Positions 16,232-49,388 of a DNA stretch of 64,000 bases are shown piece by piece; position 1 is the stretch's first letter; every line of letters starts with the position of its first letter. The stretch spans positions 90,156 to 154,155 of the forward strand of contig DAOUDW010000034.1 of NCBI GenBank assembly GCA_034430895.1. Reading direction: 5' to 3'. A program made the position numbers and the translations under genes. The DNA is from Anaerolineales bacterium (GTDB lineage: Bacteria > Chloroflexota > Anaerolineae > Anaerolineales > E44-bin32). Under the pieces are notes generated by a model. The model worked only from the letters and a program-made list of their open reading frames with translations, was not told the origin of the DNA and did no database searches.

Positions 16232-16273
16232 ACGATTACCCTGTCACAAGCATATCCATAGTATCGCTGCCAG

Positions 16274-18293: not shown

Positions 18294-18323
18294 GAGAAAA
18301 ATACTCCTATGGGCCTTAAGCGA

Positions 18324-20865: not shown

Positions 20866-21021
20866 GCGGAGATGCTATCCTTCACTTTGGATTATTTCTG
20901 AATTAACTCTTTTAATAATTCCTTTGCTTGAGAGGTTTCGATCCTTCACCGCTAACAATAACCACAAGATGACGATTGGGATTCAAAGATATTTACTGAG
21001 GAACATGAGATCGTATTTTAC

Positions 21022-23100: not shown

Positions 23101-23222
23101 GATCAATGTAAGGTTAAGGAATTGCACGAGTCTTGATCTCGTGTTCTGTCTTTATCCCAATCTGCCCGTGAAATGTGCGATCAATTTGGATCGTCGAAAA
23201 TAATATCGCATTGGAGTATTTG

Positions 23223-33022: not shown

Positions 33023-34645
33023 ATGGTGGGAAAGCGTCTGAATCTAAAAAATTTGAACATTGCAGCGCCTTTGATTGTTCTCGCCATTGGGGTTGGTTTC
33101 AAATGTATTCTTCTGGCGATGGATGTGTTCCCCCTTAATGCCGATGAAGCCGTTGTGGGATTGATGGCACGACATATATTAGAAGGGGAGTGGCCGACAT
33201 TCTTCTATGGACAGGTGTACCTGGGAAGCTTGGATGCAACCTTCGTGGCTCTTGGAATGGCATTTTTCGGGAAAAAGGTTCTCGTCATTCGGCTGGTGCA
33301 GATTCTGCTTTATGTGGGTACCATTCTCACGACGATCCATCTCGGAGAGAAGATTTTTCAATCTCGATGGACAGGCTGGGTGGCGGGTTTGCTGATGGCC
33401 ATCCCAGCATTAAACGTCACTTTGTACACAACCGTCTCTTTGGGAGGATATGGAGAGGCGTTGTTGATTGGAAATCTTCTACTTATTCTCACACTGAAGA
33501 TCATTGAAACGCCAGACTCGAAAGGACTTTACCTGGTATGGGGTGGGCTGGCAGGATTGGGTTTTTGGACTTTTGGGCTTACCTTGATCTATAGTCTACC
33601 CTGTGGGATTTTGATTCTCTGGAAACTTCCCGAACAACAACAAAAGAAAGCGATCGGTCTTCGCGTTGGGCTCTTGTTGGTTGCAGCAGCTATTGGGGCT
33701 TTGCCCTGGATTGTATGGGCTGTATCGCATGGCCCTGGAAAATTGATTCAGGAGATGATGGGATCGGCGATTGCAGGCGCTTCATCCGGCAGCGTCTGGG
33801 AAACGATCTTGATGCGGCTTCGCAATTTCATCCTGCTTGGTACAAGTGTGATCTTTGGATTACGGCCTCCCTGGGAGGTGCGTTGGCTTGCACTCCCGCT
33901 GCTACCCTTCGCGTTTGCTTTTTGGTTGGTTATTATTTTCAATGTATTTACTCACATGAAAGGCAGTGGTTCACAGCAAAGTGGTCGGTTGTTGTTGTAT
34001 GGTGTTTGTGGCTTCCTTACGATTGGATATTTATTTTCTCCATTTGGTGCGGATCCTTCGGGCAGGTATTTTCTTCCGCTTGTTGTACCGATGTCCCTTT
34101 TCGCGGCTGATTTTCTAATCGATGCAAAGCCGAAATTACAGACGAAGTGGGCTATCGCATTATTACTCGGAATCCTGTCCTTTAATCTTTGGGGAAACCT
34201 GCAATCTGCCTTTCGCAATCCACCGGGAATTACCTCGCAATTCGATGCTGTCACCCGGATCGATCATCGTTATGACGAAGCGTTAATAGATTTTCTTGTT
34301 CAGCAAGGTGAGTTGCGAGGATATTCCAATTATTGGGTGGCATATCCCCTGGCATTTCTTTCAGATGAGCGTTTGATATACATACCGATGTTGCCGTATC
34401 ATCAAGATTTCCGGCATACATCCAGAGATAATCGATACGGACCATATAATCCGCTGGTTACATCTACCGACCATGTTGCCTACATCACAATCAACCATGC
34501 AGCACTCGATCAATTTCTTCGTGATGGATTTGAAGCGCATGGCTTGCACTGGCGAGAAATTCAGATTGGGGATTATCAGGTTTTTTATGATCTGGAACCT
34601 TCGATCCATATCGAAAATCTAGATCCAGCGTGGTCGATCGAGTGA
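33023..34645 (+). CDS. GT-C-type (GT39/ArnT-like) polytopic membrane glycosyltransferase-like protein
   Basis: I prefer the ATG 33023 start; the ORF-track GTG at 32999 would overlap the divergent gene. The first-loop motif is NADEAVVGLMARHILEGEWPTFFYGQVYLGSL. It has about 12 TM helices and a soluble C-terminal domain. Confidence 0.65.
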   Translation: MVGKRLNLKNLNIAAPLIVLAIGVGFKCILLAMDVFPLNADEAVVGLMARHILEGEWPTFFYGQVYLGSLDATFVALGMAFFGKKVLVIRLVQILLYVGTILTTIHLGEKIFQSRWTGWVAGLLMAIPALNVTLYTTVSLGGYGEALLIGNLLLILTLKIIETPDSKGLYLVWGGLAGLGFWTFGLTLIYSLPCGILILWKLPEQQQKKAIGLRVGLLLVAAAIGALPWIVWAVSHGPGKLIQEMMGSAIAGASSGSVWETILMRLRNFILLGTSVIFGLRPPWEVRWLALPLLPFAFAFWLVIIFNVFTHMKGSGSQQSGRLLLYGVCGFLTIGYLFSPFGADPSGRYFLPLVVPMSLFAADFLIDAKPKLQTKWAIALLLGILSFNLWGNLQSAFRNPPGITSQFDAVTRIDHRYDEALIDFLVQQGELRGYSNYWVAYPLAFLSDERLIYIPMLPYHQDFRHTSRDNRYGPYNPLVTSTDHVAYITINHAALDQFLRDGFEAHGLHWREIQIGDYQVFYDLEPSIHIENLDPAWSIE

Positions 34646-34675
34646 GCGATATGGACGCTTGAGTGAGGTGCTGAA

Positions 34676-36142
34676 TTGAGTTTTCGTAGATTGGTTTTGT
34701 GCTTTACTTTCCTGGCAATATTCACGATGGCGGTGCGTGTATCCATTGATACCGATACATGGTGGCATTTGGCCGCGGGAAAGCGCATCGTCGAAACCGG
34801 CGAGATTATTCGTGAAGATCCCTTCTCACTTACACGGCAAGGCCAGTCTTGGATCTATCCGGGTTGGCTATCCCAGGTCATTTTATTTCGATCCTATGAC
34901 CAATGGGGATATCAAGGGTTGATCTTGTTGACGGCGTTGTTTGTTGTTCTGGCATTCGCCTGTGTCTGGCCTCTACTGGATGGACCGCCGCTCATGCGTG
35001 CAGGCACTATCCTTCTGGCGGCCTCGGTTTCAGCCGTCTATTGGTCTGCCCGTCCGCAAATTATGAGTTTTACACTCTCGGGAGCTTTTTTACTCCTGCT
35101 GGTGAAAGTGCGTGACGGCAATCATCGCTTGGCCTTGACACTGCCGTTTATCATGGCGTTGTGGACCAATCTGCATGGTGGTTTTGCCATTGGGTTTATT
35201 CTAATCGTCGGTTTTCTGGTCGGGGAAATCATGGATGCCATAAGTGGGATCGTACGCGATGGGGCTCCATATAAATCGGTGTGGCTTCAGTATCGTGGAA
35301 AATTCGTGATGTGGATCGGGATTGGTTTCGCTTGTACTGTGGCGGTTATTATTAACCCCCATGGGACTCAAATGTTGCTTTATCCGTTTAAAACCATCTC
35401 TTTAGGTGCACTGCAAGATTATCTCCAGGAGTGGCAGTCACCGAATTTCCACGAGCTTCGAATGCAACCATTTCTATGGATGCTTTTACTTCTTCTCGGA
35501 AGTCTCGCTTTCTCGAAAGAGGAAGTTTCATGGACCTCGCTCATCCTGGTGACAGGATTTACTTATTTGAGTCTTGTTGCTGCTCGCAATATTGGACTTT
35601 TCGCTCTGGTCACGGCGCCCTTGCTGTGTAAGCATGGGTATATCGCTATAAGCCCTTTTATCAATCGGAGAAAACAGGATAAAAAAATCCCGGAAGGGGT
35701 CGCCCGAATCCTCAATCTGGTAATTTTAGTTTTGATCGTACTTGCTGCGGGTGTAAATTCAATTGTACATTTGGACAATGAGTATATTCAGGAAGAGTTA
35801 TCCGGGCAGCTTCCCGTTCAAGCCGTGGGTGTCATACGAGATAACGAGTTGTATGGAAATCTGTTTAATTCTTATAATTGGGGTGGGTATTTAATCTGGG
35901 CTTCCTATCCGGATATATTGAGTTTTGTTGATGGACGAACGGATTTATTTGATGATGAAATTTTGGATGACTATCTTCTTACGTGGCTTGCCGAACCGGG
36001 ATGGGAAGAAATTCTAGATTTCTGGAATATCGAAGTTGCATTACTTGAGACTGAGTCTCCTTTAGCGAAGGTTTTAAGCATCTCTGGTTGGAACACTGTG
36101 TATAAAGACAAACAGGCCGTGGTGCTCACAAATTCCCAATAG
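34676..36142 (+). CDS. Polytopic membrane protein with a C-terminal soluble domain, GT-C-like (family uncertain)
   Basis: 488 aa. The TTG start is preceded by GAGGTG. DTDTWWHLAAGKRIVETGEI follows TM1. There are about 11 TM helices, and the C-terminal domain contains YNWGGYLIW...VDGRTDLFDDE. Confidence 0.55.
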   Translation: MSFRRLVLCFTFLAIFTMAVRVSIDTDTWWHLAAGKRIVETGEIIREDPFSLTRQGQSWIYPGWLSQVILFRSYDQWGYQGLILLTALFVVLAFACVWPLLDGPPLMRAGTILLAASVSAVYWSARPQIMSFTLSGAFLLLLVKVRDGNHRLALTLPFIMALWTNLHGGFAIGFILIVGFLVGEIMDAISGIVRDGAPYKSVWLQYRGKFVMWIGIGFACTVAVIINPHGTQMLLYPFKTISLGALQDYLQEWQSPNFHELRMQPFLWMLLLLLGSLAFSKEEVSWTSLILVTGFTYLSLVAARNIGLFALVTAPLLCKHGYIAISPFINRRKQDKKIPEGVARILNLVILVLIVLAAGVNSIVHLDNEYIQEELSGQLPVQAVGVIRDNELYGNLFNSYNWGGYLIWASYPDILSFVDGRTDLFDDEILDDYLLTWLAEPGWEEILDFWNIEVALLETESPLAKVLSISGWNTVYKDKQAVVLTNSQ

Positions 36143-36278
36143 ATCGTAGAAGCTCCAATTGGGCAGCACTAATTCATAAAAGAAAATAATCTCACGTCCG
36201 ACATTTCCTGGGTAAATTGTCATTATAGAGTTCCGGTTTAGTGGATAGGCAACAGGGAAACAAGTAGTTCCTTATTGA

Positions 36279-37553
36279 GTGATTCAAAAGCTTTTTTGGA
36301 GGTGTTGTTTGCGTTTTTTAAGTGGTTGGAAACGAAAAATAACTTACGCGATGATACCAGTTGTTCTGATTGGTTTGGTAATTGTTAGCTATCAATTGGC
36401 CATAGAAACTCCGGGAGGGAATGATTTTCTTCCCCGCTGGAAAGGAGCCCGCTTATGGCTTTTAGAGAATAAAAACCCTTATGACGAAGAAGTAAGTCTC
36501 GCCGCTCAAATTGATATCTTGGGGCGACCAGCTGATCCCACGAAATTGGAGGATCTTGCGCATTACTATTACCCGCTTTATTCAATGTTGTTCTTCGGTC
36601 CATTTGGCTTGCTCCCGTATACATATGCGCGTGCAATTATGACGACGATTCTGGTGATCGTCCTTCCAGTGCTGCTATGGATGGGTCTACGTATCGCCAA
36701 TTGGAAACCGGGTGTCACGATGATGGCACTTCTCATGGGTTTCTCCATATTCTGGTATCCAGGCGTTCGAACCATTTTCCTTGCGCAATTCTCGGCAATC
36801 AACGCTGCATTCATGATTGGCGCATTATTGGCGATTCGTCACAAGAGTGATGCATTTGGGGGCGTGTTATTGGCGTTATCAACGATGAAACCACAAATGT
36901 CGTTTCTACTTATTCCATTCGTGTTGTTATGGGCAATATCCCAGAAACGTTGGCGTTTGATACTATGGGCAGCGGGTACAGAAGGTCTGTTTTTCGCTGG
37001 CTCTCTCGCACTGGTGCCCGATTGGCCCATTCGTTGGATCTGGCAAGTTATGGAATATGCAAAGTACACAGTGGAAGGACAACCAATTGCCATAATCGCC
37101 AGTATATTTCCTGCTCATTCGGACAATATCACGAGAATTCTGACAGGTATTATTCTTTTTTATCTGGGTCTCGAGTGGGTCTTAGCATGGAGAAAGGGTG
37201 ATAGCTGGTTTCAATGGACCGCCGCAATTACGATTGTAGTTACCAATATCGTAGCCTATCGAACTGCAACCACGAGCTATGTGGTCATGATCCCAGCGCT
37301 TTGCATCATTTTCAGCACATGGGTTCGACGCTGGAACAAGAAGGGAAATTTAACCGTTGTGTTCGCGATAATCTTTCTCTTTCTGGGAATGTGGGTTTTA
37401 TTCCTCGCAAGCGTAACGGGCAATCAAGAGAGTTCAATAATGTATCCTCCATTGCCGATAATAACCTTTATTGGATTATTCTGGGTTCGTTGGTGGGCAA
37501 TCCGGTCGGAGAAACTGCCTCTTGAGGGATCCTTCACCGAGCAGAGAATATGA
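36279..37553 (+). CDS. GT87/DUF2029-like (PimE-class) polyprenyl-phosphate-sugar-dependent glycosyltransferase-like membrane protein
   Basis: 424 aa, all-TM architecture. The motif GGNDFLPRWKGARLWLLENKNPY...HYYYPLYSMLFFGPFGLL resembles the D-x...YPP pattern of GT87. The start (GTG) is uncertain. Confidence 0.55.
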   Translation: MIQKLFWRCCLRFLSGWKRKITYAMIPVVLIGLVIVSYQLAIETPGGNDFLPRWKGARLWLLENKNPYDEEVSLAAQIDILGRPADPTKLEDLAHYYYPLYSMLFFGPFGLLPYTYARAIMTTILVIVLPVLLWMGLRIANWKPGVTMMALLMGFSIFWYPGVRTIFLAQFSAINAAFMIGALLAIRHKSDAFGGVLLALSTMKPQMSFLLIPFVLLWAISQKRWRLILWAAGTEGLFFAGSLALVPDWPIRWIWQVMEYAKYTVEGQPIAIIASIFPAHSDNITRILTGIILFYLGLEWVLAWRKGDSWFQWTAAITIVVTNIVAYRTATTSYVVMIPALCIIFSTWVRRWNKKGNLTVVFAIIFLFLGMWVLFLASVTGNQESSIMYPPLPIITFIGLFWVRWWAIRSEKLPLEGSFTEQRI

Positions 37554-37606
37554 TCTATTCGACCGGCATAATCATTTGCAGCCATCTCTGGGGAAGCGAG
37601 TAAAAA

Positions 37607-39667
37607 GTGTCTCAGGAGTCCAGTCGCCACGATAAAAACGAAAACAATAAGTCCTCGTCCCTGATTTCTTCATTGATAATATTGCTCTGGATCGAAGGAA
37701 TAATTGCGGCGCATTTCTGGGTTCATAAACCCTGGCCAATTGGCCAAAATAGTGCGCCGCTTGCAGCCGTTGTGGATTTGCTGCTTGCACTTATGCTTGT
37801 GGCCTTGGCGGGAGGGATTGGGCGATCCATCTTTCGTTCAAAACTTCCATTCTCGCATATCGAAAACATCGCTTTGCAAGTAGCCCTCGGTATGGGGATT
37901 CTTGGGTTCGTGGTGTTTGCTGCAGGATTGATCGGTTTTCTCGGGCCCTGGCAAGCCTGGCTTGGGCTGGGAATCTCAGTGCTCATTTTTTATAAAACCA
38001 TTCTCGCCTGGCTTGGAGAATGGCGCGTGGTATTCGATGATTCTCAAAATCCTGGCGCCGTGGAGAGAGTAGCCCGCTGGCTTGTCGTGTTTCTTGTTGT
38101 GATTGCAGGTTTTCAAGCCCTTGCACCACCTTTGAAGTGGGACAGTCTCGTATATCACCTGGAATTGCCACAACGTTATTTCGAGATGGGAAAGCTCTTC
38201 CATCTCAGCGATAATCTCTTCTCTGGATTCCCCCAATTGTCTGAGATGATGTTTACATGGGCGGTTGCTTTACGAAGTGGTTCAACCGCAGCGACGCTGG
38301 GGTGGATTGTTGGTGTGATGGCAATCCTTGGGTTAGGAGGTTTTGCTGCGCGAAAGGTCGGAAAGGAATTTCAGTGGATCGCGCCTGCGTTCTTGTTAAC
38401 CGGCGCGAGTATTTCACGGGGATTGAGCTGGGCGTACGTCGATTTGTGGGTGTTTTTATTCGGGTTGGCCACGATCATCTTTTTAGATCAGTATGGTTGG
38501 ACAAAGAAAACGGTTTGGGTGGGATTATCTGCCGTCTTCGCCGGCTTTGCCTCCAGCACGAAGTACACAGCAGGAATGATCCTTCCTATCGGAGTAGTTT
38601 ATTTAATCGTGGTGTGGATTCAATCTCATCGAGCAACGTCATCCCCACAAAGATCATGGAAACCCCTGGTTGTATCCGTATTGCTGTTCGTTTCCATCTC
38701 TATCATGATCGTCATCCCATGGTTCGCGAAAAATACCGGGATGACAGGGAATCCGGTGTATCCATTCTTTTTCGACGGCAAGGATATGAACGACCTGCGT
38801 TTGTCGTTCTATCAGGGCGAGATGTATGAGCGGACGATATTCGATCCGCTACTGCTTCCGATCGAAGGTACGATCCTGGGTATTGAGGGAGGCCCAAAAT
38901 TCAACACGAGTATTTCCCCCTTATTCCTGGCACTTATTCCGGGTGTGTATTTTGGTTGGCGATATATCCAGGAGAAGAACAGGAAGAGCGTTATAGGATT
39001 GGCGGCCATGGTGTTCTCTGCCTGGTTCGTTTGGGCGCTGGGCTCACAAATCGCCTCAGCACTCACGAGGACGCGTCACTTTTACGTCATATTTCCTGCA
39101 CTCGTGCTATTAACCTCTTTTGGCTATGACTATGTCCGGCGGCTTAAAATTGGATCGGTTGATATCGGATGGCTTGTGCAACGCCTGATTATGGTTGTAT
39201 TCATCTTGACGGCGATTACGGAAGCTTTATTTTTTGCAAAGGCCAGTCCTATTCGTGTGCTCTCCGGCTTTCAAACAGAGGATGAATATCTCGCGGAACA
39301 ACTCGGCTGGTTTGGACCTGTAATGAACGATGTTAATTCACTTCCCGAGGGATCGAACGTGGCGATGTTCTGGGAACCACGCTCCTATTATTGTATAGTC
39401 TCTTGTTCTCAGGATGTGATTCTGGATCGCTGGTGGTATTTAATGCGTACAGTCGGTGAGGCAGGTGAAGTCGTTTCGTTGCTAAGGACGCAAGGATTTA
39501 CTCACGTGCTTATATACGACTTCGGCGTACAATTGGTTCGCGATAAAGATAATATGCTCGAACCTGAAGACTGGGAAGAACTGGAACGATTTCGAGAAGA
39601 AGAGCTGCGTGTTCTTCAAGAATATCATGATGCATATACGCTGTATGAAATACCTGCAGACATCTAA
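37607..39667 (+). CDS. GT-C-type polytopic membrane glycosyltransferase-like protein (paralogue of 21022-23100)
   Basis: 686 aa. It has an N-terminal 4-TM extension followed by PPLKWDSLVYHLELPQRYFEMGK. The C-terminal soluble domain carries YYCIVSC. It is colinear with the 692-aa protein. Confidence 0.65.
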   Translation: MSQESSRHDKNENNKSSSLISSLIILLWIEGIIAAHFWVHKPWPIGQNSAPLAAVVDLLLALMLVALAGGIGRSIFRSKLPFSHIENIALQVALGMGILGFVVFAAGLIGFLGPWQAWLGLGISVLIFYKTILAWLGEWRVVFDDSQNPGAVERVARWLVVFLVVIAGFQALAPPLKWDSLVYHLELPQRYFEMGKLFHLSDNLFSGFPQLSEMMFTWAVALRSGSTAATLGWIVGVMAILGLGGFAARKVGKEFQWIAPAFLLTGASISRGLSWAYVDLWVFLFGLATIIFLDQYGWTKKTVWVGLSAVFAGFASSTKYTAGMILPIGVVYLIVVWIQSHRATSSPQRSWKPLVVSVLLFVSISIMIVIPWFAKNTGMTGNPVYPFFFDGKDMNDLRLSFYQGEMYERTIFDPLLLPIEGTILGIEGGPKFNTSISPLFLALIPGVYFGWRYIQEKNRKSVIGLAAMVFSAWFVWALGSQIASALTRTRHFYVIFPALVLLTSFGYDYVRRLKIGSVDIGWLVQRLIMVVFILTAITEALFFAKASPIRVLSGFQTEDEYLAEQLGWFGPVMNDVNSLPEGSNVAMFWEPRSYYCIVSCSQDVILDRWWYLMRTVGEAGEVVSLLRTQGFTHVLIYDFGVQLVRDKDNMLEPEDWEELERFREEELRVLQEYHDAYTLYEIPADI

Positions 39668-39710
39668 TAATAACCATTCGTTACGCGCATCGATCGAGAA
39701 AAGGTGACTC

Positions 39711-40655
39711 ATGCCTGAAAAGGGAAAACCAATGAATTCCTCCCAACAGGAAGCGAACGAACGGATCTCTTCCGGCATCTCCATCATCATTCCTGCTTAC
39801 AACGAACAGGATGGGATCGGAACCGTTTTGAAGCATATTCATGAGGTTCTCCAGGATCGAGGTTGGGCATACGAGTTGATCGTAGTGGATGATGGCTCAG
39901 ATGACGATACGTATGACATTGCTGGAAGCATCACGAATACGAAGGTACTTCGTCATCCACGGAACAGGGGCTATGGCGCGGCGCTGAAAACCGGTATCCG
40001 GCATGCTCAATTTGAGAATCTCTTGATTACCGATGCGGATGGAACATATCCTGTCCATCAGATTCCCGAACTCGTGGAACGGCTCATCGGCAGTAAATGT
40101 GATATGGTCGTGGGAGCGAGAGTGGGAAAGCATGTATCCATCCCCATTCTACGGAGACCGGCGAAGTGGTTCATTCGCAAGTTGGCGGAAATCGTTGCCG
40201 GGATTCCGATTCCGGATTTGAACTCAGGCCTGCGAGTTTTTCGCAAGGGCGCAACACTTCCATTCTTTAATATGCTGCCGGAGGGTTTTTCGTTTACAAC
40301 AACGATCACATTGGCAATGGTGACCAATGGTTATACCGTTGAATATGTTCCCATATCGTATTTTCAACGAGTAGGGAAATCGAAATTACGACCGATACGA
40401 GATACGCTTAATTTCGTTCAACTTGTATTAAGAATCACGTTATATTTTGCACCGTTGAAGATTTTCGTACCGATCAGCATGGTTTTGATTGTGATTGCAA
40501 TCGCCTGGGCGGTATTTTCCACAATAGTCCTCGGTCGCCTTGCGGATACATCGGCGGTTGTTATCTTCATGACCGGTGTTCAAGTTGGCGTTCTCGGGCT
40601 GCTTGCCGAATTGCTCGATCGCCGCTTACCTTCCTTTCACAGACCTGAAGATTGA
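39711..40655 (+). CDS. GT2 polyprenyl-phosphate hexosyltransferase (DPM1/GtrB/ArnC-like)
   Basis: 314 aa. Motifs are ISIIIPAYNEQDGI, ELIVVDDGSDDDT, RNRGYGAALKTG and LITDADGTYP, plus two C-terminal TM helices as in GtrB/ArnC. AAGGTG RBS. Confidence 0.85.
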   Translation: MPEKGKPMNSSQQEANERISSGISIIIPAYNEQDGIGTVLKHIHEVLQDRGWAYELIVVDDGSDDDTYDIAGSITNTKVLRHPRNRGYGAALKTGIRHAQFENLLITDADGTYPVHQIPELVERLIGSKCDMVVGARVGKHVSIPILRRPAKWFIRKLAEIVAGIPIPDLNSGLRVFRKGATLPFFNMLPEGFSFTTTITLAMVTNGYTVEYVPISYFQRVGKSKLRPIRDTLNFVQLVLRITLYFAPLKIFVPISMVLIVIAIAWAVFSTIVLGRLADTSAVVIFMTGVQVGVLGLLAELLDRRLPSFHRPED

Positions 40656-42142
40656 AGCATATCCGTGATTTAGGTGATTTCCGGGAAGGCGATCTCGATC
40701 AAAGAATTTCATTGCAAGTCGTTCGGGCATTTTTCGTCGAGGTAGAGCGTGCAGTGACCGATCCCAGGAAGAGCATATCGGGAAACGTGTATCAGCGTCT
40801 CCGTGAGGAGGTCGTCGATCGTGGATTGTGTACCCATTGTGGAACATGCGCGGGTTTATCCAACGGGAGTGTCATCATGGCGCGTGAGAGCCGGGGTCCG
40901 CTGCCGGTATCCCGACGGGATGATGCCGCATTGCTAACAGAACTAGCCTACCAGGTTTGTCCGGGATTGGGGGTTGATTATCCGGATATGTTCCGTTGGT
41001 TGTTCGACAGTCTTCCCGAAAATTGGTTGATCGGCGTTTATCGCAAGCTATTTCTCGGGCATTCCTCAATCCCCATGATTCGCCGTAATGGTTCTTCAGG
41101 AGGCGTGATCACCCAGACATTGCTATATTTGCTTAAAAATGATCTTATCGACGGTGCCGTCGTGCTGCGTCATGGGGAGCCGGAGACTTGGTTGTCTACA
41201 CCGATCATCGCCCAGTCCGCAGCGCAGATCGAAGCAGCTGCGCAAAGTGTCTACGTGCCGACTCCGGTGAACACGATCCTGGCTGAAATCGAATCTTTCG
41301 ACGGACGCTTGGCATACGTTGGGCTGCCGGATCAAGTGGCTGCGATCCGGCGGTTGCAGCGCTTAGGTCACGCTGGCGCGAAGAAAATCGAATATATCAT
41401 CGGCCCGTATGTCGGTACGATCTTGTACTTGGAGGCGATTAAGAGTTACTTGCGATCCAATGGGGGCAAAACCCTGGACGATGTCGCTAAACTCCGTTAT
41501 CGGGAAGGGGAGTGGCCTGGATTCCTGGAGATCAGATTAAAGAACGGCGAAACCTTGCGGGAGAATAAATTTTATTACAACTACTTGATTCCCTTTTATC
41601 TCACTGCGAGTACGCTGCTGAGTGTAGATTTTACTAATGAATTAACCGACATATCCGTGGGCGATGCCTGGCAACCGCAGCTCGAAGATAAGGGGGAAGG
41701 TTTCTCTGTCATCTTGGCTCGCACAGATCGGGGATTGCGATTGTTAACCGATATGAAGGACAATGGATTGCTAGCGCTCGAAGAAATCTCGCTGGAATCC
41801 GCATTGGCGATGCATGGTCACATGCTTGATTTTAAAAAGAGGGGATCCTTTATTCGCATGGCCTGGCATCGCCGGCTTGGTCTTGCTGTCCCCACATACG
41901 GATACGCACCCGAACGAGTATCCTTCTCCCGCTTCCTGGTTGAATTCATCATTTCAGGAATCCTGCTCGTCGGACACTCCCGGTTGGCGAGGTGGTTAGT
42001 TGAACGCATCCCCCTCAAGTTGATCGGACCGCTGTTTAACGTTATACGGAAGACCTGGAAACGAATTTCCAAACCGACAAAAAGAAGTGGTTTACGGACG
42101 ATGTCGTTTCGGATCGAGCCACCCTCACAAACGAAACTATAA
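40652..42142 (+). CDS. FrhB/FdhB-like (coenzyme F420 hydrogenase/dehydrogenase beta-subunit family) Fe-S flavoprotein
   Basis: It has one ferredoxin-type cluster motif (CTHCGTCAG...VCPG) followed by an FrhB-like N/C domain pattern (SSGGVITQTLLYLL..., VGLPDQVAAIRRL, SVDFTNELTDISVGDAW). The start is uncertain: TTG 40652 overlaps the GT2 stop, and in-frame GTG codons up to about 40800 are possible. Confidence 0.7.
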   Translation: MKHIRDLGDFREGDLDQRISLQVVRAFFVEVERAVTDPRKSISGNVYQRLREEVVDRGLCTHCGTCAGLSNGSVIMARESRGPLPVSRRDDAALLTELAYQVCPGLGVDYPDMFRWLFDSLPENWLIGVYRKLFLGHSSIPMIRRNGSSGGVITQTLLYLLKNDLIDGAVVLRHGEPETWLSTPIIAQSAAQIEAAAQSVYVPTPVNTILAEIESFDGRLAYVGLPDQVAAIRRLQRLGHAGAKKIEYIIGPYVGTILYLEAIKSYLRSNGGKTLDDVAKLRYREGEWPGFLEIRLKNGETLRENKFYYNYLIPFYLTASTLLSVDFTNELTDISVGDAWQPQLEDKGEGFSVILARTDRGLRLLTDMKDNGLLALEEISLESALAMHGHMLDFKKRGSFIRMAWHRRLGLAVPTYGYAPERVSFSRFLVEFIISGILLVGHSRLARWLVERIPLKLIGPLFNVIRKTWKRISKPTKRSGLRTMSFRIEPPSQTKL

Positions 42143-42147
42143 AAAAA

Positions 42148-42975
42148 ATGGGATGGCCCTGCGGTCATCCGGGGAGTTACAAGAATTTGATGCATCAAAA
42201 TTCTGCGGAGCAATCATTCATCGGACGTGTACGAGAAGAGATCGGGCACTGGCGGCGGACGCATTGGACTTTCGAGGATGTTGGTAATCATTGGGACGCG
42301 ACGGAAGATTATGATGAGATCAATGAGGGAACGTATTCTTATTTCCGTCGCTTCATTGATGGCCTGCGTTTGAGTAACCTCGATGCGAAATCGCATGTAT
42401 TGGATTTCTGCGCGCGCACGGGTAACGGAACCGCCTATTTCTATGAGAATGGAAAAGTGGGGTCGGCAGTTTGCGCGGATGTTTCCGACCGCATGGGTGA
42501 GATATGTGTCCAGCGGCTCCGTGAGTGTGGATTGCAAGACTTCGTTTGGGAGAAAGTCCTCGATTACGCCTTTCCTTATGAAGACAATGCCTTCGATGCC
42601 GTTCTGTGTTTTGAATCCGTAGAGCATTTTCCCGATCCTGCCCGTTTGATCAATGAACTTGGCCGCGTTACCCGTCCGGGAGGGTCACTCATTCTAACGA
42701 CACCCAATGTGTTGTGGGAGCCGGTTCATGCGCTTGCGGCGGTAACGAAGCTCCATCACTCTGAAGGTCCGCATCGCTTCATTCGTCTGGGGAAATTGAA
42801 GTCGATGATCGAGGAGGCTGGTTTTAGCATAGAATGCGACGAAACAACCGTTCTTATCCCGGCAGGGCCGGGGTGGTTGATCAAACTCGGGGAGTGGCTC
42901 GAAAGACGGACGGTGAATTGGCTTATGCCGATTTTGGGTTTACGCCGTGTGATCGTCGGCCGAAAGCGTCCATGA
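42148..42975 (+). CDS. Class I SAM-dependent methyltransferase
   Basis: Motif I-like VLDFCARTGNG and post-I/II motifs (VLCFESVEHFPDPARLINELGRVTRPGGSLILTTPN). It appears soluble. ATG 42190 (GGGGAG upstream) is an alternative start. Confidence 0.8.
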   Translation: MGWPCGHPGSYKNLMHQNSAEQSFIGRVREEIGHWRRTHWTFEDVGNHWDATEDYDEINEGTYSYFRRFIDGLRLSNLDAKSHVLDFCARTGNGTAYFYENGKVGSAVCADVSDRMGEICVQRLRECGLQDFVWEKVLDYAFPYEDNAFDAVLCFESVEHFPDPARLINELGRVTRPGGSLILTTPNVLWEPVHALAAVTKLHHSEGPHRFIRLGKLKSMIEEAGFSIECDETTVLIPAGPGWLIKLGEWLERRTVNWLMPILGLRRVIVGRKRP

Positions 42976-43019
42976 GATTGGATCCCCGATGACGACCAAC
43001 GCCGTGATGGAATTCACGA

Positions 43020-44057
43020 TTGGGATGCGTTGACATGACAAACGTGGCAGGCGGCGACGAAAGATCGGTAGTCCGAACTCGTGGAATTCGAGACGGTATG
43101 CGGTTTTTATTACCGCGGACAATCGGACTAATCCTGCTGATTGTCTTACTCCAGCGGATAGACACAGGTCATCTTCTGGATACGCTGAAGAAAGCAGATA
43201 TCGGCATGGTCATGTTGGCGATGATCTTGCTGATCGTGTTAATCGGTATCAAGACCCTTCGCTGGCAACTGATTCTGCGGACGTTAAAGATATCCATATC
43301 CTGGCGCAATGCATTCCTGGCCTATTTTGCAAGTATTTTCATCGGGTTCCTGACACCGGGGCGTTTGGGGGAATTCGGAAGAGCACTGTATATTCGTAAT
43401 GACCCGAACGCGCAATCTGGTGTGGGATTTTCCAGTGTTCTTGCCGATCGGCTTTTCGACCTGTATGCGCTCCTTCTCGCGGGAAGTGCCGCTATCTTCT
43501 CGCTGGGAAGCAGGCTATATTGGATGTGGACCCTTTTGTTCTTCGTGGTCTCTTTGTTGCCCGTGTTTCTATTTATATCTGAGGTTTCTTTCAACTGGTT
43601 AAAAACCATCGCAACTCGCCTGGGGCGGGTTGGAGTGGGACTATTCGATCGAAATGGATGGCTGGTCGGCATGCGTCAAGGATTGCTTAAAATGGGAATG
43701 AGGCTCCTCGCTATCAGCGCAGTCTTGACGGTGACAGCGTATCTGGTCTATTTTACGCAGTGTTTTATTTTGTCGAAGGCATTGGCTATCGAGGTCAGCT
43801 ACTCCAGTGTCATGTTCGCTGTGGCTTTGGGCAGCTTGATCACGCTCTTACCTTTTTCAATATCCGGATTGGGAACACGTGAAGCAACGATCATCGCCTA
43901 TTTGAGCACAGTCGGTGTATCCCCCGAAACAGCGCTTAGCTTCTCCTTCCTCGTATTCGTCACTTTTTATGTTATGGGGGGATTGATCGGAGCATTAGCC
44001 TGGTTAGTTCACCCGATCCAGTTGAATTTGAAACGAGGAGAGGGGAATCGGGATTAG
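43020..44057 (+). CDS. Flippase-like membrane protein (LPG_synthase_TM / UPF0104 family)
   Basis: About 8 TM helices. Family-typical motifs are KTLRWQLIL and FLTPGRLGEFGRALYI. The start is uncertain (TTG 43020 or ATG 43035). Confidence 0.7.
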   Translation: MGCVDMTNVAGGDERSVVRTRGIRDGMRFLLPRTIGLILLIVLLQRIDTGHLLDTLKKADIGMVMLAMILLIVLIGIKTLRWQLILRTLKISISWRNAFLAYFASIFIGFLTPGRLGEFGRALYIRNDPNAQSGVGFSSVLADRLFDLYALLLAGSAAIFSLGSRLYWMWTLLFFVVSLLPVFLFISEVSFNWLKTIATRLGRVGVGLFDRNGWLVGMRQGLLKMGMRLLAISAVLTVTAYLVYFTQCFILSKALAIEVSYSSVMFAVALGSLITLLPFSISGLGTREATIIAYLSTVGVSPETALSFSFLVFVTFYVMGGLIGALAWLVHPIQLNLKRGEGNRD

Positions 44058-44058
44058 G

Positions 44059-45633
44059 ATGAACAGAGGCGACACAATTCTCCTTCTCGCCCTGGCGGTG
44101 TTTGTATATCTTGTCGTTACTGTGGCTGTGTCTGTGCCAGGCTACATGGACGCGGACTACTACTACGCCACAGCCAAGCAGTTGGCTGCTGGCAAAGGAT
44201 TCTCTGAACCGTTTATCTGGAATTATCTCGATAATCCGGCCGGTTTGCCGCATCCTTCTCATACTTACTGGATGCCGCTGACGAGTATTATCTCCGCAGG
44301 TGCGATCTATCTTTTCGGCGATCATTTCCGAGCAGCGCAATTTCCCATGTTCATTGCGGCCGTTCTCCTGCCGCTGATAACCGCATGGTTGGCAAGACGA
44401 TTCGGCGCAGATCGAAGGTTGATGTTGAGTGCTGGAGTGATATCCATTTTCTCAGGATTTTATGTGCCGTACTTTGTGACAACGGATTCTTTTGCTATCT
44501 TTGCCTGGATAGGAAGCGCTGTTCTCATTCTGGCGGCAGACACGAGCCATCAACCCAAAGTCTCCACATGGTTTTGGGTAGGAGTCCTTGCAGGACTTGG
44601 GTATCTCACTCGCGCGGACGGTTTGTTGCTGCTCATACCGGCCGCTTTGGCGGTTTTGTGGAGCAATGCGGCAAGACGCAAAGCGATCGTGATGCTTGCG
44701 CTCGGTTATTTTCTCTGCGCGGGTCCCTGGTTTATTCGGAACCTGATCGAGACGGGACACGTGTTTTCAACAGGGGTGGGGCGCTCGCTATGGCTGCTTT
44801 CGTACAACGAGCTGTTCAGCTATCCCGCAGATGTACTGACCCCTGAACGCTGGTGGCAAGCTGGAATTGGGGAGATATTGTCGACGAGATTATCGTCTTT
44901 GGGAATCATCCTGCAGCGATTTATCGCCGAAATCGGTTTGGTTTTTTTGTGGCCATTCATGATGGTGGGCCTCTATCTGCAGCGAAAAAGAAGAGAGATC
45001 CGTTTGCTATTGGTCTATCTCATTTTCCTTCTCGGTTTGATGATGGTTGCCTATCCTTTCGCTGGCGCGTACGGCGGCATTTTTCATTCAGGCGTGGTTT
45101 TACTGCCATTCCTTTGGGCGCTTGCACCCATGGGAATCGATCGTACGATCGAATGGGGTGCACGAGTCCGTAAGTGGGATGTACGCCAAGCCAAGAGAGT
45201 TCTGGGCACAGGTGCGATCGCCCTTGTGATCTTGTTCTCCATTGGCCTCACTTGGAGCAGAGTGGTTGGTTCCTCGATTTCCTCCCCTCGCTGGCAGGCG
45301 CCGAATCACACGTACACGCAAATTGGCGAACAGCTTTTTGACCTTGCTGGCGCGGCAGACATCGTGGCGGTGAACAACCCGCCGGGGTTTTTCCTCGCAA
45401 CGGGCATGCAAGCCGTCGTCATTCCCAACGGCACGCCAGAGACTTTGAAATCCGTAGTCGACCGATATCAGGTCCACTGGCTGATACTTGATGTTAATCA
45501 TCCCGCCGGTTTGGCTTCGCTGTATACTAGTGATCGTTCACCTACCTGGCTGGAATTAATCGAGACCATCCAGGACTCAAATGGAGAAGATGTTCAAATT
45601 TGGAAAGTGCGATCCACGGAGGCAGCGCCATGA
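44059..45633 (+). CDS. GT-C-type (GT39/PMT_2-like) polytopic membrane glycosyltransferase-like protein
   Basis: 524 aa. It starts 1 nt after the preceding stop. PGYMDADYYYATAKQLAAGKGFSEPFIWNY follows TM1. It has about 12 TM helices and a soluble C-terminal domain. Confidence 0.7.
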   Translation: MNRGDTILLLALAVFVYLVVTVAVSVPGYMDADYYYATAKQLAAGKGFSEPFIWNYLDNPAGLPHPSHTYWMPLTSIISAGAIYLFGDHFRAAQFPMFIAAVLLPLITAWLARRFGADRRLMLSAGVISIFSGFYVPYFVTTDSFAIFAWIGSAVLILAADTSHQPKVSTWFWVGVLAGLGYLTRADGLLLLIPAALAVLWSNAARRKAIVMLALGYFLCAGPWFIRNLIETGHVFSTGVGRSLWLLSYNELFSYPADVLTPERWWQAGIGEILSTRLSSLGIILQRFIAEIGLVFLWPFMMVGLYLQRKRREIRLLLVYLIFLLGLMMVAYPFAGAYGGIFHSGVVLLPFLWALAPMGIDRTIEWGARVRKWDVRQAKRVLGTGAIALVILFSIGLTWSRVVGSSISSPRWQAPNHTYTQIGEQLFDLAGAADIVAVNNPPGFFLATGMQAVVIPNGTPETLKSVVDRYQVHWLILDVNHPAGLASLYTSDRSPTWLELIETIQDSNGEDVQIWKVRSTEAAP

Positions 45634-47129
45634 GCGTCACGGGCACACGACGTGAGGCGCGTCGATATCTTATCTTGCTTCTGCTTACAGGCTTGGTCCT
45701 GGGAGGCTATCTGGCGACCAGCAAAGCCGTTTATGGTTTCGGTTTCCCGCTGGATGATGCTTGGATTCACCAAACGTACGCTCGAAATCTTGTTGCGGAG
45801 GGGGAATGGGCGTTTCTGCCTGGTCAACCAAGCGCTGGATCGACAGCCCCATTGTGGACGTTGGTTCTAAGCCTGGGATACCGTTTGGGGATAGATCCGA
45901 AGGCGTGGAGCTATTTACTCGGTGGATTGCTGCTGATGGCCACTGCATGGGTGTGTGGACTATGGTTCGTACAACGAATGGAAAAACCCCGGCGATGGAT
46001 CTTGTGGGCGGCTTCACTCGTGATTCTTGAATGGCATTTGGCCTGGGCCGCTGTTTCAGGAATGGAAATCCTCGCCCTGGCCTTTATCGCTGCGTATGTC
46101 CTCTATCGCCTGGAATGTACGCAGTTCCGGGCCGTGTTTCTAGGCGCTGTAATCGGTTTAGGTGTCTGGATACGACCGGATGCGTTATCCTTGCTTCTAC
46201 CGGTGGGCTGGACGATTTTATTTCGTGATCGGGCAACGTTTAAGCGTCTGATCGTCGATATTGGATGTGTTTGTTTGGGATTGGTCATCACGATCATTCC
46301 TTATGGGATGTTCAATTTCTGGCTTTCAGGAACATGGTGGCCGAGTACCTTCTATGCCAAATCTGCTGAATACGCCGTTCTTCGAGAGTCTTCTCTCATT
46401 CAACGCTTGATCACTCAGCTTTCTGTGCCTTTTGTGGGAGCTGCTGTCATTCTCCTTCCCGGAATTGTGATCTCCGTTATCCAATCTTGTCGTACGAAGA
46501 AATGGACGCAGTTCGCATCGTTGCTCTGGGCCGTTGGATTTCTGGCTGCTTATGCCTGGCGGCTGCCGGTGACCTATCAACATGGGCGATACGCCATGCC
46601 CGTGATCCCTATCTTGCTTGTCGTCGGATCGAGTGGTTTGATCGTCGTTATGGATTATGAACCAAAACAAACGTTTCGTCGGTTGCTGGCGAAATCCTGG
46701 CCGATATCCACCTGGGCAGCAGCCCTGGCGTTCCTCGTTCTTGGCGCCCAAGCCTACGGTCGTGATGTGGCGATTATCGAAACGGAGATGGTGCAATGTG
46801 CACAATGGATCGCGGTCAACACGGAATCAAATGCCATTGTCGCTTCACATGATATCGGAGCCTTGGGATATTATTCGAGGAGGCCATTATTGGATTTGGC
46901 AGGATTGATTTCACCGGAGGTGATACCATTTATTCGAGACGAGGATGCCCTGGCGCAATACCTGACAAAGAACAATGCGGCCTATCTGATGACTTTTCCG
47001 CAGTGGTATCCATCCCTTGTCCAACAGGCCAAGAGAGTGTATCTTACAGCATCGGAGTTTAGCCCACGTTCGGGTGGTGAGAATATGGCCGTTTATAAGT
47101 GGACATTGCGAGGTTTGCCTCATGAGTAA
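45630..47129 (+). CDS. GT-C-type polytopic membrane glycosyltransferase-like protein (paralogue of 31475-33013)
   Basis: I chose the start at ATG 45630 (GGAGG 7 nt upstream, ATGA overlap with the previous stop). Motifs are FPLDDAWIHQTYARNLVAEGEWAFLPGQPSAGSTAPLWTLVL and the C-terminal HDIGALGYYSRRPLLDLAGLISP. Confidence 0.65.
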   Translation: MSVTGTRREARRYLILLLLTGLVLGGYLATSKAVYGFGFPLDDAWIHQTYARNLVAEGEWAFLPGQPSAGSTAPLWTLVLSLGYRLGIDPKAWSYLLGGLLLMATAWVCGLWFVQRMEKPRRWILWAASLVILEWHLAWAAVSGMEILALAFIAAYVLYRLECTQFRAVFLGAVIGLGVWIRPDALSLLLPVGWTILFRDRATFKRLIVDIGCVCLGLVITIIPYGMFNFWLSGTWWPSTFYAKSAEYAVLRESSLIQRLITQLSVPFVGAAVILLPGIVISVIQSCRTKKWTQFASLLWAVGFLAAYAWRLPVTYQHGRYAMPVIPILLVVGSSGLIVVMDYEPKQTFRRLLAKSWPISTWAAALAFLVLGAQAYGRDVAIIETEMVQCAQWIAVNTESNAIVASHDIGALGYYSRRPLLDLAGLISPEVIPFIRDEDALAQYLTKNNAAYLMTFPQWYPSLVQQAKRVYLTASEFSPRSGGENMAVYKWTLRGLPHE

Positions 47130-47867: not shown

Positions 47868-47879
47868 ACAGGCATTGAG

Positions 47880-49190: not shown

Positions 49191-49241
49191 TATTCATACT
49201 CAATTTATTTCTTGAAACCACATGAAAAGGAGGTGAATCAG

Positions 49242-49388
49242 ATGCTGTACAGCCCGAAGGAAAAAGGTCAAGGCCTCGTCGAATATGCTTTGATTCTTGT
49301 ATTGATCGCAGTTGTAGTGATCGTTATTTTGGCGTTGCTTGGACCTGCCATTGGAAACGTGTTCAGCAATATCGTCAATAATATTTAA
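49242..49388 (+). CDS. flp: Flp/Fap-family type IVb pilin precursor (48 aa)
   Basis: Hand translation gives MLYSPKEKGQGLVEYALILVLIAVVVIVILALLGPAIGNVFSNIVNNI*. It contains the Flp motif G/xxxxEY (KEKG|QGLVEY) followed by a ~20-residue hydrophobic helix. An AAGGAGG RBS lies 8 nt upstream. At under 60 aa it is absent from the supplied ORF track. Confidence 0.9.
   Translation: MLYSPKEKGQGLVEYALILVLIAVVVIVILALLGPAIGNVFSNIVNNI

Follow-up and report, generated by a model that had tools for sequence, protein, structure and literature searches.

A string of divergent GT-C-type glycosyltransferase genes in Anaerolineales and a widespread gene cassette that may tailor a lipid-linked sugar

A ten-gene string that recurs in Anaerolineales

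The DNA analyzed here, a stretch of 64,000 nucleotides from an Anaerolineales bacterium (GenBank assembly GCA_034430895.1, contig DAOUDW010000034.1, positions 90,156 to 154,155) that we refer to as the window, carries ten open reading frames (ORFs), all on the + strand, at positions 33023-47129. We number them g1 to g10. Six encode large polytopic membrane proteins of the GT-C class of glycosyltransferases, and g5 to g8 form a cassette of a family GT2 glycosyltransferase, an FrhB-like flavoprotein, a methyltransferase, and a flippase-like protein, which may together prepare a modified lipid-linked sugar. Two further GT-C-like genes, gm1 and gm2, lie on the - strand directly before g1. An earlier description of this DNA, made from the letters alone (the sequence-only reading), had listed the ten + strand ORFs with the same coordinates, and our ORF listing reproduces them together with the successive gaps from g1 to g10 of 30, 136, 53, 43, -4, 5, 44, 1, and -4 bp.

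Judging from this spacing and from synteny, the string may be an operon. A promoter and terminator scan of the window gave the same site counts as shuffled sequence, providing no operon evidence either way, and an Rfam scan of the window found no RNA family at threshold. Five of the ten genes begin with a TTG or GTG codon, which makes the exact position of those starts model-dependent. For g2, the TTG start (34676) is probably correct because homologues conserve the longer N-terminus: the first 17 residues are kept among homologues, and the longer form is found in homologues of 486-490 residues. The database call of g2 (P0001, 471 residues) begins at an internal ATG at 34727 and loses the first transmembrane (TM) helix.

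The string is not a chance arrangement, because the gene-neighborhood comparison that the sequence-only reading had proposed finds it again, whole or in large part, in four other Anaerolineales genomes (loci L005, L035, L019, and L040) and partly in a fifth locus (L001). These loci were retrieved via g2 or g6 homologues; L035 holds all twelve genes (gm2, gm1, and g1 to g10), and L005 holds gm2 through g6, where the locus ends. The g6 homologues of these loci are 53-90% identical to g6 of the window, and the nearest relatives of the string are Anaerolineales metagenome-assembled genomes.

The divergent start codons of gm1 and g1 lie about 9 bp apart in the window (33013/33023) and in L005 (2363/2373) and 0 bp apart in L035 (2298/2299), so the close divergent arrangement is conserved in all three. 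With starts about 9 bp apart, the promoter of each gene must sit within the coding region of the other.

Proteins of the GT-C type

The six polytopic proteins of the string are all GT-C-type, as judged by Pfam, by profile-profile links, or by AlphaFold models compared with Foldseek. The sequence-only reading had assigned them to this class, and the assignment stands: profiles and folds fall within GT-C, orthologues keep the acidic residues of the first loop, and the literature yielded no paper about the locus. They have 7-11 predicted TM helices, or 6-11 once gm1 and gm2 are counted. An acidic motif had been placed right after the first helix (TM1) in each of the six; all six motifs are present and their acids are conserved in orthologues, but that of g4 follows the fifth helix. 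The count of six GT-C proteins was too low, as there are eight GT-C-like genes at the locus and nine in the window.

A PMT_2-family member of the string is g9 (44059..45633, + strand; Pfam 5.5e-11, 43.4 bits versus a cutoff of 26.1), with the motif Y-M-D-A-D-Y-Y, of which the first D is conserved among orthologues. The g3 protein (36279..37553, + strand) belongs to the GT87 family, the class of PimE (Pfam 6.5e-13, 49.4 bits versus a cutoff of 25). The GT87 match spans model positions 1-229 of 237, and the first-loop motif G-[GA]-N-D-F is kept in 14 homologues; a single-sequence search of the PDB gave no PimE match at E <= 1. The g4 protein (37607..39667, + strand, 686 residues) is a PMT_2-like GT-C with four extra N-terminal TM helices, and because of this extension its acidic motif comes after the fifth predicted helix (residues 151-169). 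The g4 sequence itself has no Pfam match and a weak NCBIfam match to LIC_10190 (2.4e-5, far under the cutoff), and 44 of 64 g4 homologues match PMT_2 (E <= 0.01, best 1.1e-10). Residue D179 is invariant in 64 sequences, as are Y183 and H184. The g1 protein (33023..34645, + strand) can be placed in the PMT_2/ArnT-like superfamily, with a weak PMT_2 match under the Pfam cutoff (17 bits, E 0.007), hhalign links to the families of g9 (1.5e-5) and g10 (3.7e-4), and the motif N-A-D-E after TM1, whose DE is kept in 5 orthologues.

No Pfam PMT_2 or PMT match was found for g10, gm1, or g2. The g10 protein (45630..47129, + strand) has more than 5,000 homologues and an invariant P-L-D-D after TM1, with D42 and D43 unchanged in 57 sequences. 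Its AlphaFold2 model (pLDDT, the predicted local distance difference test, 91.4) has an ArnT/AftB/STT3-like fold, with Foldseek matches to ArnT (PDB ID 5ezm, 3.7e-9), AftB (PDB ID 9dlh, root mean square deviation 5.7), STT3, AglB, ALG9, and AftD. No Pfam family is matched by g10; the NCBIfam model LA3751_2_3 (LA_3751/3752 "putative glycosyltransferase") matches at 2.2e-12, under its 200-bit cutoff.

The g2 protein (34676..36142, + strand) belongs to an orphan GT-C family, and neither Pfam nor NCBIfam gave a match; about 1,900 homologues were found, none with a functional name or Pfam domain. D27 is invariant in 52 sequences, and so are W30 and H31. The fold of the AlphaFold2 model (pLDDT 90.6) is nearest to STT3, AglB, and DPY19, with the best Foldseek match being STT3 (PDB ID 7oci_F, 5.3e-8, TMq 0.54-0.57) and further matches to ArnT (3.1e-4), PglB, and AftA. 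In the models of both g2 and g10, the conserved acidic residue is predicted to sit after helix 1 and ahead of a short second helix. We do not accept g2 as an oligosaccharyltransferase (OST): its best fold match is STT3, yet its sequence has no WWDYG string, and the g2 family profile found no OST among PDB sequences. Near the start of the C-terminal soluble domain, g2 has the invariant stretches NSYNWGGY (398-405) and VDGRTDLFDDE (418-427). On direct reading, the former recalls the WWDYG of STT3, PglB, and AglB by its position and its G-Y, without the Asp.

Upstream of the string, gm1 (31475..33013, - strand, 512 residues, motif DDAFITFRYAQNL) is a GT-C-type paralogue of g10 (BLASTP 1.7e-14; hhalign 1.9e-22 across 430 columns), with the DD of its motif conserved in orthologues. 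The gm2 protein (30135..31478, - strand, 447 residues) is GT-C-like and polytopic, its gene being oriented divergently from the string; it matches Pfam PMT (9.7e-06, 25.7 bits versus a cutoff of 22.7), is linked to the g4 family by hhalign (1.5e-5), and carries the motif FHPDES after TM1, which is kept in L035 and L004. The ninth GT-C-type protein (21022..23100, + strand, 692 residues) matches PMT_2 (1.1e-08, 35.8 bits versus a cutoff of 26.1).

Besides the links of g1 to g9, g10 to gm1, and g4 to gm2, hhalign connects the families of g4 and g9 (3e-7) and of g9 and g10 (3e-7), leaving g2 and g3 as outliers of the profile-profile network. In an all-against-all BLASTP comparison, only g10 and gm1 are linked, apart from a weak g9-gm1 match, and recent paralogy among the GT-C proteins was rejected on this ground. 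By their sequences, they are long-diverged lineages and not recent duplicates. Sequence searches against the PDB with the family profiles of g2, g4, and g10 and with g3 and g8 as single sequences gave no usable match; only fold comparison worked.

The cassette g5 to g8

The first cassette protein, g5 (39711..40655, + strand), is a family GT2 protein (Pfam Glycos_transf_2, 1.8e-27) of the predicted polyprenyl- or dolichyl-phosphate glycosyltransferase class that includes GtrB, DPM1, ArnC, and AglJ. It has the motifs DDGSDD and TDADG and two or three C-terminal hydrophobic segments. The PDB match to GtrB (PDB ID 5ekp, 1.2e-16) covers residues 22-304, which is the full length including the membrane hairpin, and there are further matches to the Pyrococcus dolichyl-phosphate mannose synthase (PDB ID 5mlz) and to ArnC. 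The NCBIfam matches are AglJ, a dolichyl-phosphate-hexose transferase, PpgS, and ArnC, all under their equivalog cutoffs. Among the window ORFs scanned, g5 is the only gene resembling a polyprenyl-phosphate glycosyltransferase.

The g6 protein (40652..42142, + strand) is an FrhB/FdhB-like Fe-S flavoprotein (Pfam FrhB_FdhB_N, 7.8e-17; FrhB_FdhB_C, 2.6e-22), with PDB matches to 8riu_B (1.4e-21), FrhB, and Fsr and a weak one to HCAR (PDB ID 5dqr, 1.1e-3). Its C-terminal tail is conserved and partly hydrophobic. A role as a true FrhB or FpoF hydrogenase subunit was rejected, the equivalog scores being 70-89 bits versus cutoffs of 269-475 and partner subunits being absent; neither hydrogenase (FrhA/FrhG) nor Fpo genes occur among the window ORFs scanned. 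Within residues 60-104, g6 of the window has only four N-terminal cysteines (C60, C63, C66, and C103-P), enough for one [4Fe-4S] cluster, whereas the family's majority consensus shows eight, as in a two-cluster ferredoxin domain.

The g7 protein (42148..42975, + strand) is a class I S-adenosylmethionine (SAM)-dependent methyltransferase (Pfam Methyltransf_23/11/25) whose PDB matches are MitM and a D-glucose O-methyltransferase. It has no Pfam or NCBIfam match to lipid methylases of the cyclopropane- or mycolic-acid-synthase type. The g8 protein (43020..44057, + strand) belongs to the UPF0104/LPG_synthase_TM family, resembling the flippase domain of MprF (Pfam 5.1e-43; TIGR00374 "flippase-like," 2.6e-26), and we propose it as the flippase for the tailored lipid-sugar. 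It was rejected as an MprF itself: its 345 residues comprise the TM domain only, without the C-terminal synthase (DUF2156), and it scores 16 bits against the MprF equivalog cutoff of 600.

Pfam, NCBIfam, and PDB matches thus confirm the GT2 protein with C-terminal TM helices and the LPG_synthase_TM protein that the sequence-only reading had described. The g6 and g7 genes, both central to the cassette, were missing from its interpretation. Its analogy to systems of synthase, flippase, and GT-C holds for the component classes, but the donor module consists of four genes, including a redox enzyme and a methyltransferase.

Distribution of the cassette and gene fusions

A library search with g6 gave 4,469 relatives, 524 of them below 1e-30, and the long matches were then scanned with Pfam. 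A scan of one genome per species yielded 80 loci with g6 orthologues that are 45-90% identical. The Chloroflexota among them belong to Anaerolineae, Caldilineae, Ardenticatenia, Chloroflexia, SAR202, and Dehalococcoidia; about 25 loci are from Peribacteria/Peregrinibacteria of the candidate phyla radiation (CPR), and others are from Woese- and Nanoarchaeia (DPANN), Bacteroidales, Gemmatimonadota, Cyanobacteria, Verrucomicrobiota, Myxococcota, and further groups. A g5-like GT2 gene adjoins g6 in 69 of the 80 loci, a g7-like methyltransferase is adjacent to or fused with it in 59, and a g8-like gene adjoins in at least 38. The genes run g5-g6-g7-g8 in Chloroflexota and Bacteroidales, whereas Peribacteria have them as g8-g7-g6-g5.

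Fused ORFs in the retrieved loci number 18, of which 13 are FrhB-methyltransferase fusions (Chloroflexota) and 5 have the reverse order (Peribacteria). The Pfam-scanned relatives add FrhB-methyltransferase (P0361), methyltransferase-FrhB (P0363, P0366, and P0395), and methyltransferase-FrhB-methyltransferase (P0378) fusions, and a triple fusion of methyltransferase, FrhB, and LPG_synthase_TM (P0381). On the adjacency, the gene order, and the fusions that in other genomes join the FrhB, methyltransferase, and flippase-like parts, g5 to g8 are best regarded as one predicted functional module. Rare fusions of UPF0104 domains with SAM methyltransferases were noted in the PplT preprint (10.1101/2022.03.11.483950), without this system. 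We found no description of the g5-g8 cassette or of this locus in the literature and, in particular, none of the putative tailoring pair of FrhB-like protein and methyltransferase; nor did we find a characterization of FrhB proteins with pyruvyl transferases or of glycosylation in Anaerolineae or Peribacteria.

Among remoter g6 relatives, the fusion partners are polysaccharide pyruvyl transferases or heparinase II/III domains (the latter in P0485). In one remoter subgroup, from Cyanobacteria, Rhodospirillaceae, and Myxococcota, the methyltransferase is absent, and g6 adjoins a soluble protein of about 540 residues (L051, 11509-13152; L074, 4605-6203; L076, 8255-9865) with the N-terminal signature D(R/K)D(P/R)DSPTFGxFDRNxWHYKIRDF.

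Association of the cassette with GT-C genes

To describe the neighborhood of the cassette, we counted as large polytopic ORFs those of at least 400 residues with at least 8 hydrophobic segments, leaving out g8-like genes. By this hydropathy rule, such ORFs number 1.76 per 10 kb up to a distance of 5 kb from the cassette versus 0.36 per 10 kb in the remoter parts of the same loci. Among the 46 well-flanked cassettes, 41 have at least one large polytopic ORF nearby and 27 have at least two. Sampled neighbors match PMT_2 or PMT in Bacteroidales (L041), Nanoarchaeia (L050), and Dehalococcoidia (L039); a Caldilineaceae locus (L024) has PMT/PMT_2-type matches on four genes, two of which exceed the gathering cutoff, the other two being weak. 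Peribacteria gave a weak match (L047) and L016 a TMEM260-like protein, while some sampled neighbors are Wzx-like and several have no Pfam match.

In Chloroflexota, the cassette is followed by a g4-like and then a g3-like gene in L007, L011, L017, L018, L020, L029, L034, and L038, and the arrangement is reversed in L023. The order in the window is different, namely g3, g4, and cassette. Two different gene orders imply independent co-location and argue for a functional tie of the cassette to g4 and g3. The g4 protein is the GT-C found most consistently next to the cassette in Chloroflexota, and, as far as gene order can tell, the firm link of the cassette is only to g4 and g3.

Three remoter Anaerolineae loci (L085-L087), retrieved via g10 homologues, have the order g2, (GT4s), GT87, g4 (DUF8201), g9-like, g10, regulator, kinase, Flp, Tad, phosphoribosyltransferase (PRTase), and ribosome hibernation factor. 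This backbone lacks the cassette, implying that these GT-C proteins do not need it in cis. A g2 homologue occurs by itself in a complete genome (L003). On this synteny, the GT-C string is a conserved backbone of Anaerolineae, into which a putatively mobile or variable module, the cassette, has been placed in this lineage. The other GT-C proteins may use other donors, including lipid-diphosphate (PP)-linked glycans of the Wzx pathway upstream. The claim of the sequence-only reading that one donor module serves all six GT-C proteins was therefore not borne out, given the cassette-free backbone in L085-L087 and the other Chloroflexota cassettes that stand by g4- and g3-like genes only.

Genomic context in the window

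Positions 14816-25598 hold a complete Wzx-type locus for a lipid-PP-glycan plus a PMT_2 GT-C and a Wzy_C/TPR gene. On the - strand, it comprises an initiating phosphoglycosyltransferase (Bac_transf and CoA_binding_3; 14816..16231; Pfam Bac_transf, 1.1e-64), a WecG/TagA/CpsF-family glycosyltransferase (16274..17119; Glyco_tran_WecG, 1.4e-65), a GT4 glycosyltransferase (17088..18293; Glycos_transf_1, 3.2e-29), a sulfotransferase (18324..19292; Sulfotransfer_3, 2e-12), and a Wzx-type (MOP) flippase for a lipid-PP-glycan (19279..20865; Polysacc_synt, 3.1e-25). The ninth GT-C gene follows on the + strand, as does a gene for an 807-residue protein with a Wzy_C domain, as in O-antigen ligases or polymerases, and tetratricopeptide repeats (TPRs) (23175..25598; Wzy_C, 2.2e-15, plus TPRs). 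Because the phosphoglycosyltransferase initiates a lipid-PP-linked glycan, it identifies this pathway as a candidate for making the acceptor. The presence of a sulfotransferase suggests that the wall glycan carries sulfate.

In L001, an 820-residue Wzy_C and TPR protein is encoded inside the string, between g2 and GT87, which ties the upstream block to the string. The genes rpoD and H+-pyrophosphatase lie between the glycan locus and gm2/gm1, and they are also found upstream in L001. The sequence-only reading had reported neither an export gene nor a candidate acceptor gene in the window; the Wzx flippase is an export gene, and both this pathway and a downstream Flp pilin are candidate acceptors. 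Its statement that nucleotide-sugar synthesis genes are absent agrees with our finding of none among the window ORFs scanned.

Downstream, the string is followed by a LuxR/GerE response regulator and a DegS-like HisKA_3 kinase (47175..48926, + strand; Pfam), an order that is kept after the g10 homologue in L085-L087; a regulatory link to the string is possible. Next come a Flp/Fap pilin of 58 residues with GQGLVEYALILVLIAV (49212..49388; Flp_Fap, 4e-7, just under the Pfam cutoff) and a Tad locus extending to 55538, with CpaB/RcpC, a receiver-domain CpaE-like ATPase, CpaF, and two TadB/C genes. The whole order of GT-C string, LuxR regulator, DegS-like kinase, Flp, and Tad genes is kept in L085-L087. 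We do not accept a functional tie between string and Tad pilus on this basis: the synteny says little about function because it also covers unrelated housekeeping genes, namely, rpoD and H+-pyrophosphatase upstream and the PRTase and ribosome hibernation factor downstream.

Two other observations concern the far upstream part of the window. A 1,368-residue protein (9438-13544, - strand) carries TPR repeats at each end and a repetitive, acidic stretch rich in Pro and Glu, which gives a PARP-like match at residues 1219-1277; its neighbors are a histone-deacetylase-family gene and the glycan locus. At 7835-8922, a gene for a LigT-like 2',3'-cyclic phosphoesterase shares 4 bp with the beginning of a SLOG cluster-4 (LDcluster4) gene, a pair that is unrelated to the string.

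Proposed mechanism and alternatives

The fold and family assignments, the conservation of residues, the synteny, and the gene fusions are established. We lean slightly toward a system of extracytoplasmic glycosylation in which the donor is modified while attached to its lipid. On the cytoplasmic face, g5 would transfer a sugar from a nucleotide sugar to polyprenyl phosphate; the membrane-associated g6 would carry out a redox step on the lipid-linked sugar, and g7 would methylate it. The tailored lipid-phosphate-sugar would be moved to the outer leaflet by g8, and GT-C proteins would pass the sugar to an envelope acceptor by means of the conserved Asp/Glu of the first external loop, the likeliest user being g4, followed by g3. 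The backbone GT-C proteins g1, g2, g9, g10, gm1, gm2, and the protein at 21022-23100 may draw on the same donor or on different ones. As acceptor, the most economical choice would be the glycan of the upstream phosphoglycosyltransferase, TagA, GT4, sulfotransferase, Wzx, and Wzy_C genes. A broader claim, that the GT2, FrhB-like, methyltransferase, and UPF0104 proteins are a pan-phylum module that makes a modified sugar on polyprenyl phosphate and flips it for GT-C proteins, is more tentative and should be read as a working idea; the modified sugar might be, for instance, a methylated and reduced or oxidized hexose, a detail that we offer equally tentatively.

A precedent for the tailoring of a lipid-linked donor is ArnD. 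Others are DprE1/E2 and the epimerase ORF13 (PMC11127046).

Several points weigh against the proposed mechanism. Each biochemical step, the identity of the sugar and of the acceptor, and the sequence in which tailoring and flipping occur are what we infer, and we know of no reaction that needs FrhB-like and methyltransferase chemistry on a lipid-linked sugar. The g5 scores lie far under every NCBIfam equivalog cutoff (AglJ, 114 bits versus 325; the next, 97 versus 375; PpgS, 90 versus 370; ArnC, 63 versus 529), which leaves both its sugar and its lipid acceptor undefined. The polytopic neighbors were counted by a crude rule of hydropathy, some being Wzx-like and not GT-C. L085-L087 keep g3, g4, g9, and g10 with no cassette at that site, and the cassette of L013 has no large polytopic neighbor. 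Finally, the experimental ties of UPF0104 proteins are to end-product lipids, that is, lysyl-phosphatidylglycerol (Lys-PG) and glucosaminyl-phosphatidylglycerol (GlcN-PG), and not to polyprenyl-phosphate sugars (PMC12713373, PMC5898192); even flipping by GpgF is unproven (PMC12713373).

Among the alternatives, we hold it unlikely that a single lipid-phosphate-sugar donor, synthesized by g5 and translocated by g8, supplies all eight or nine GT-C proteins, which would then build or decorate one product. The tight co-directional string, present whole or largely so in four other Anaerolineales genomes, speaks for such a donor, as do the position of g5 as the sole polyprenyl-phosphate glycosyltransferase-like gene and the several PMT_2-like genes flanking the cassettes of Caldilineaceae L024 and Bacteroidales L041. 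A parallel is the polyprenyl-phosphate-mannose of Corynebacteriales, which supplies PimE, MptA-D, and Pmt. The backbone without cassette in L085-L087 and the lone g2 homologue in L003 argue the other way, and several donors would be compatible with eight GT-C proteins that are mutually very divergent, one of which, g2, has a fold nearest to OSTs using lipid-PP-oligosaccharides. A protein acceptor (the Flp pilin, for instance, or a protein of the S-layer or sheath), with the GT-C proteins acting as O- or N-glycosyltransferases in the style of PMT, TMEM260, or STT3, is likewise improbable. The PMT_2/PMT-like families, the STT3-like fold of g2, and the Flp and Tad genes after the string, with synteny kept in L085-L087, are consistent with it. 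The same synteny covers housekeeping genes equally, mature Flp would have about 37 mostly hydrophobic residues, g2 lacks WWDYG on direct reading, and a polysaccharide pathway is available within the window.

The cassette might make a membrane glycolipid as its end product, with g5 glycosylating a lipid, g6 and g7 altering the head group, g8 flipping it, and the GT-C proteins using other donors, a reading that we regard as quite unlikely. UPF0104 proteins with some experimental link do sit in end-product systems, such as MprF and GpgF (PMC12713373, PMC5898192), the order of synthase, tailoring enzyme, and flippase is that of GpgSDF (GlcN-PG) and HexSDF, and the L013 cassette has no GT-C neighbor. 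The best matches of g5 are all polyprenyl- or dolichyl-phosphate glycosyltransferases with a C-terminal TM hairpin, though, whereas GpgS is a GT4 enzyme (PMC12713373); moreover, the density of large polytopic proteins, in many cases GT-C, is raised about fivefold by the cassette across phyla, and the cassette stands beside g4- and g3-like genes in two gene orders. We consider it very unlikely that g6 and g7 modify the lipid carrier instead of the sugar, for example, by reducing or methylating an isoprene unit to give a dolichol-like or dedicated carrier. Stand-alone FrhB-like enzymes include reductases of C=C bonds or hydroxymethyl groups on lipophilic substrates, BciB being one and HCAR, the weak g6 match, another; the hydrophobic tail of g6 and the presence of the cassette in DPANN archaea and CPR would also suit a carrier role. 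The fusion of remoter g6 relatives to sugar-acting partners, namely, polysaccharide pyruvyl transferases and heparinase-like domains, speaks against this, as does g7, a generic class I methyltransferase without a Pfam or NCBIfam lipid-methylase match and with MitM and a D-glucose O-methyltransferase as its PDB matches.

Comparison with known systems

Tailoring of a lipid-linked donor for GT-C proteins, the reading we prefer, resembles the three-component systems GtrA/GtrB/Gtr*, ArnC/ArnEF/ArnT, GacI/GacK/GacL, CsbB/GtcA/YfhO, and the pentofuranose systems (PMC11127046). The shared elements are a polyprenyl-phosphate-sugar synthase, a proposed small membrane flippase, and a GT-C with acidic residues in the first loop, and some of these systems also tailor the lipid-linked donor in the cytoplasm (ArnD, ORF13, and DprE1/E2). 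The differences are a flippase candidate of the UPF0104/MprF type in place of GtrA, SMR, MATE, or Wzx, with no GtrA, SMR, or MATE protein in the string, a tailoring pair of FrhB-like protein and SAM methyltransferase, and eight or nine GT-C proteins instead of one. In its predicted working, the locus parallels both a three-component system and mycobacterial assembly by multiple GT-C proteins, yet it is a canonical member of neither.

In archaea, a neighborhood of AglD-like GT2 (arCOG00897), UPF0104 (arCOG00899), and PMT/STT3-like (arCOG00563) proteins was predicted by Makarova et al. in 2015, with AglD being a GT2-UPF0104 fusion (PMC5898192). The same three protein classes are found together here, and a DPANN locus (L050) carries the cassette itself. 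Unlike the present bacterial locus with its many GT-C proteins, the archaeal neighborhood has no described FrhB-like protein or methyltransferase and is tied to the capping of S-layer N-glycans. The sequence-only reading knew of no characterized system of this composition in Chloroflexota, and we likewise found none in the literature, but the use of one donor by several GT-C proteins and the archaeal neighborhood of GT2, UPF0104, and PMT are precedented.

The former precedent comes from Corynebacteriales, where several GT-C proteins draw on one lipid-phosphate-sugar donor in the case of arabinofuranose (PMC11127046). Lipomannan, lipoarabinomannan, and arabinogalactan synthesis there (Ppm1/decaprenylphosphoryl arabinose, PimE, MptA-D, EmbA-C, and AftA-D) involves many divergent GT-C proteins with one or two lipid-phosphate-sugar donors. 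Both systems have a GT87 member of the PimE class and ArnT/AftB-like folds, and the decaprenylphosphoryl arabinose donor undergoes flavin-dependent redox tailoring while lipid-linked, by DprE1/E2. The corynebacterial genes are scattered, and the donor chemistry, flippase type, tailoring enzymes, and phylum differ; sequence-level orthology to Corynebacteriales genes was not found beyond the family level.

GpgSDF of Pseudomonas aeruginosa (GlcN-PG; PMC12713373) and HexSDF of Clostridioides difficile resemble the cassette in their order of glycosyltransferase, head-group tailoring enzyme, and UPF0104 protein and differ in that a GT4 synthase and a deacetylase produce glycerolipids as end products and in having no GT-C partners. 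Glycan loci with FrhB and pyruvyl transferase (P0418, P0436, and P0445) share the FrhB_N/FrhB_C superfamily and the glycan context; their FrhB proteins are remoter, about 30-33% identical, and the partner is a pyruvyl transferase and not a methyltransferase.

Significance

The envelopes of Chloroflexota are poorly understood, and we found no characterized glycan pathway of Anaerolineae in the literature. The locus provides a parts list for one, consisting of a lipid-PP-glycan pathway, a donor cassette, and eight or nine GT-C proteins, two of whose families number thousands of homologues but lack a Pfam model. The conserved, fused, pan-phylum cassette is the most interesting element, more so than the number of GT-C proteins taken by itself. 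It matters beyond the phylum, as it is found with 45-60% identity even in the reduced Peribacteria and Nanoarchaeia and its parts have been repeatedly fused. If the proposed mechanism is true, tailoring of a sugar on its carrier would extend the few known lipid-linked tailoring steps (ArnD, DprE1/E2, and ORF13) and would represent a route to sugar diversity that bypasses the tailoring of nucleotide sugars. It would also give a first function to an FrhB-like subfamily that is common in polysaccharide loci, and g8 would be the first UPF0104 protein assigned as a flippase of polyprenyl-phosphate sugars.

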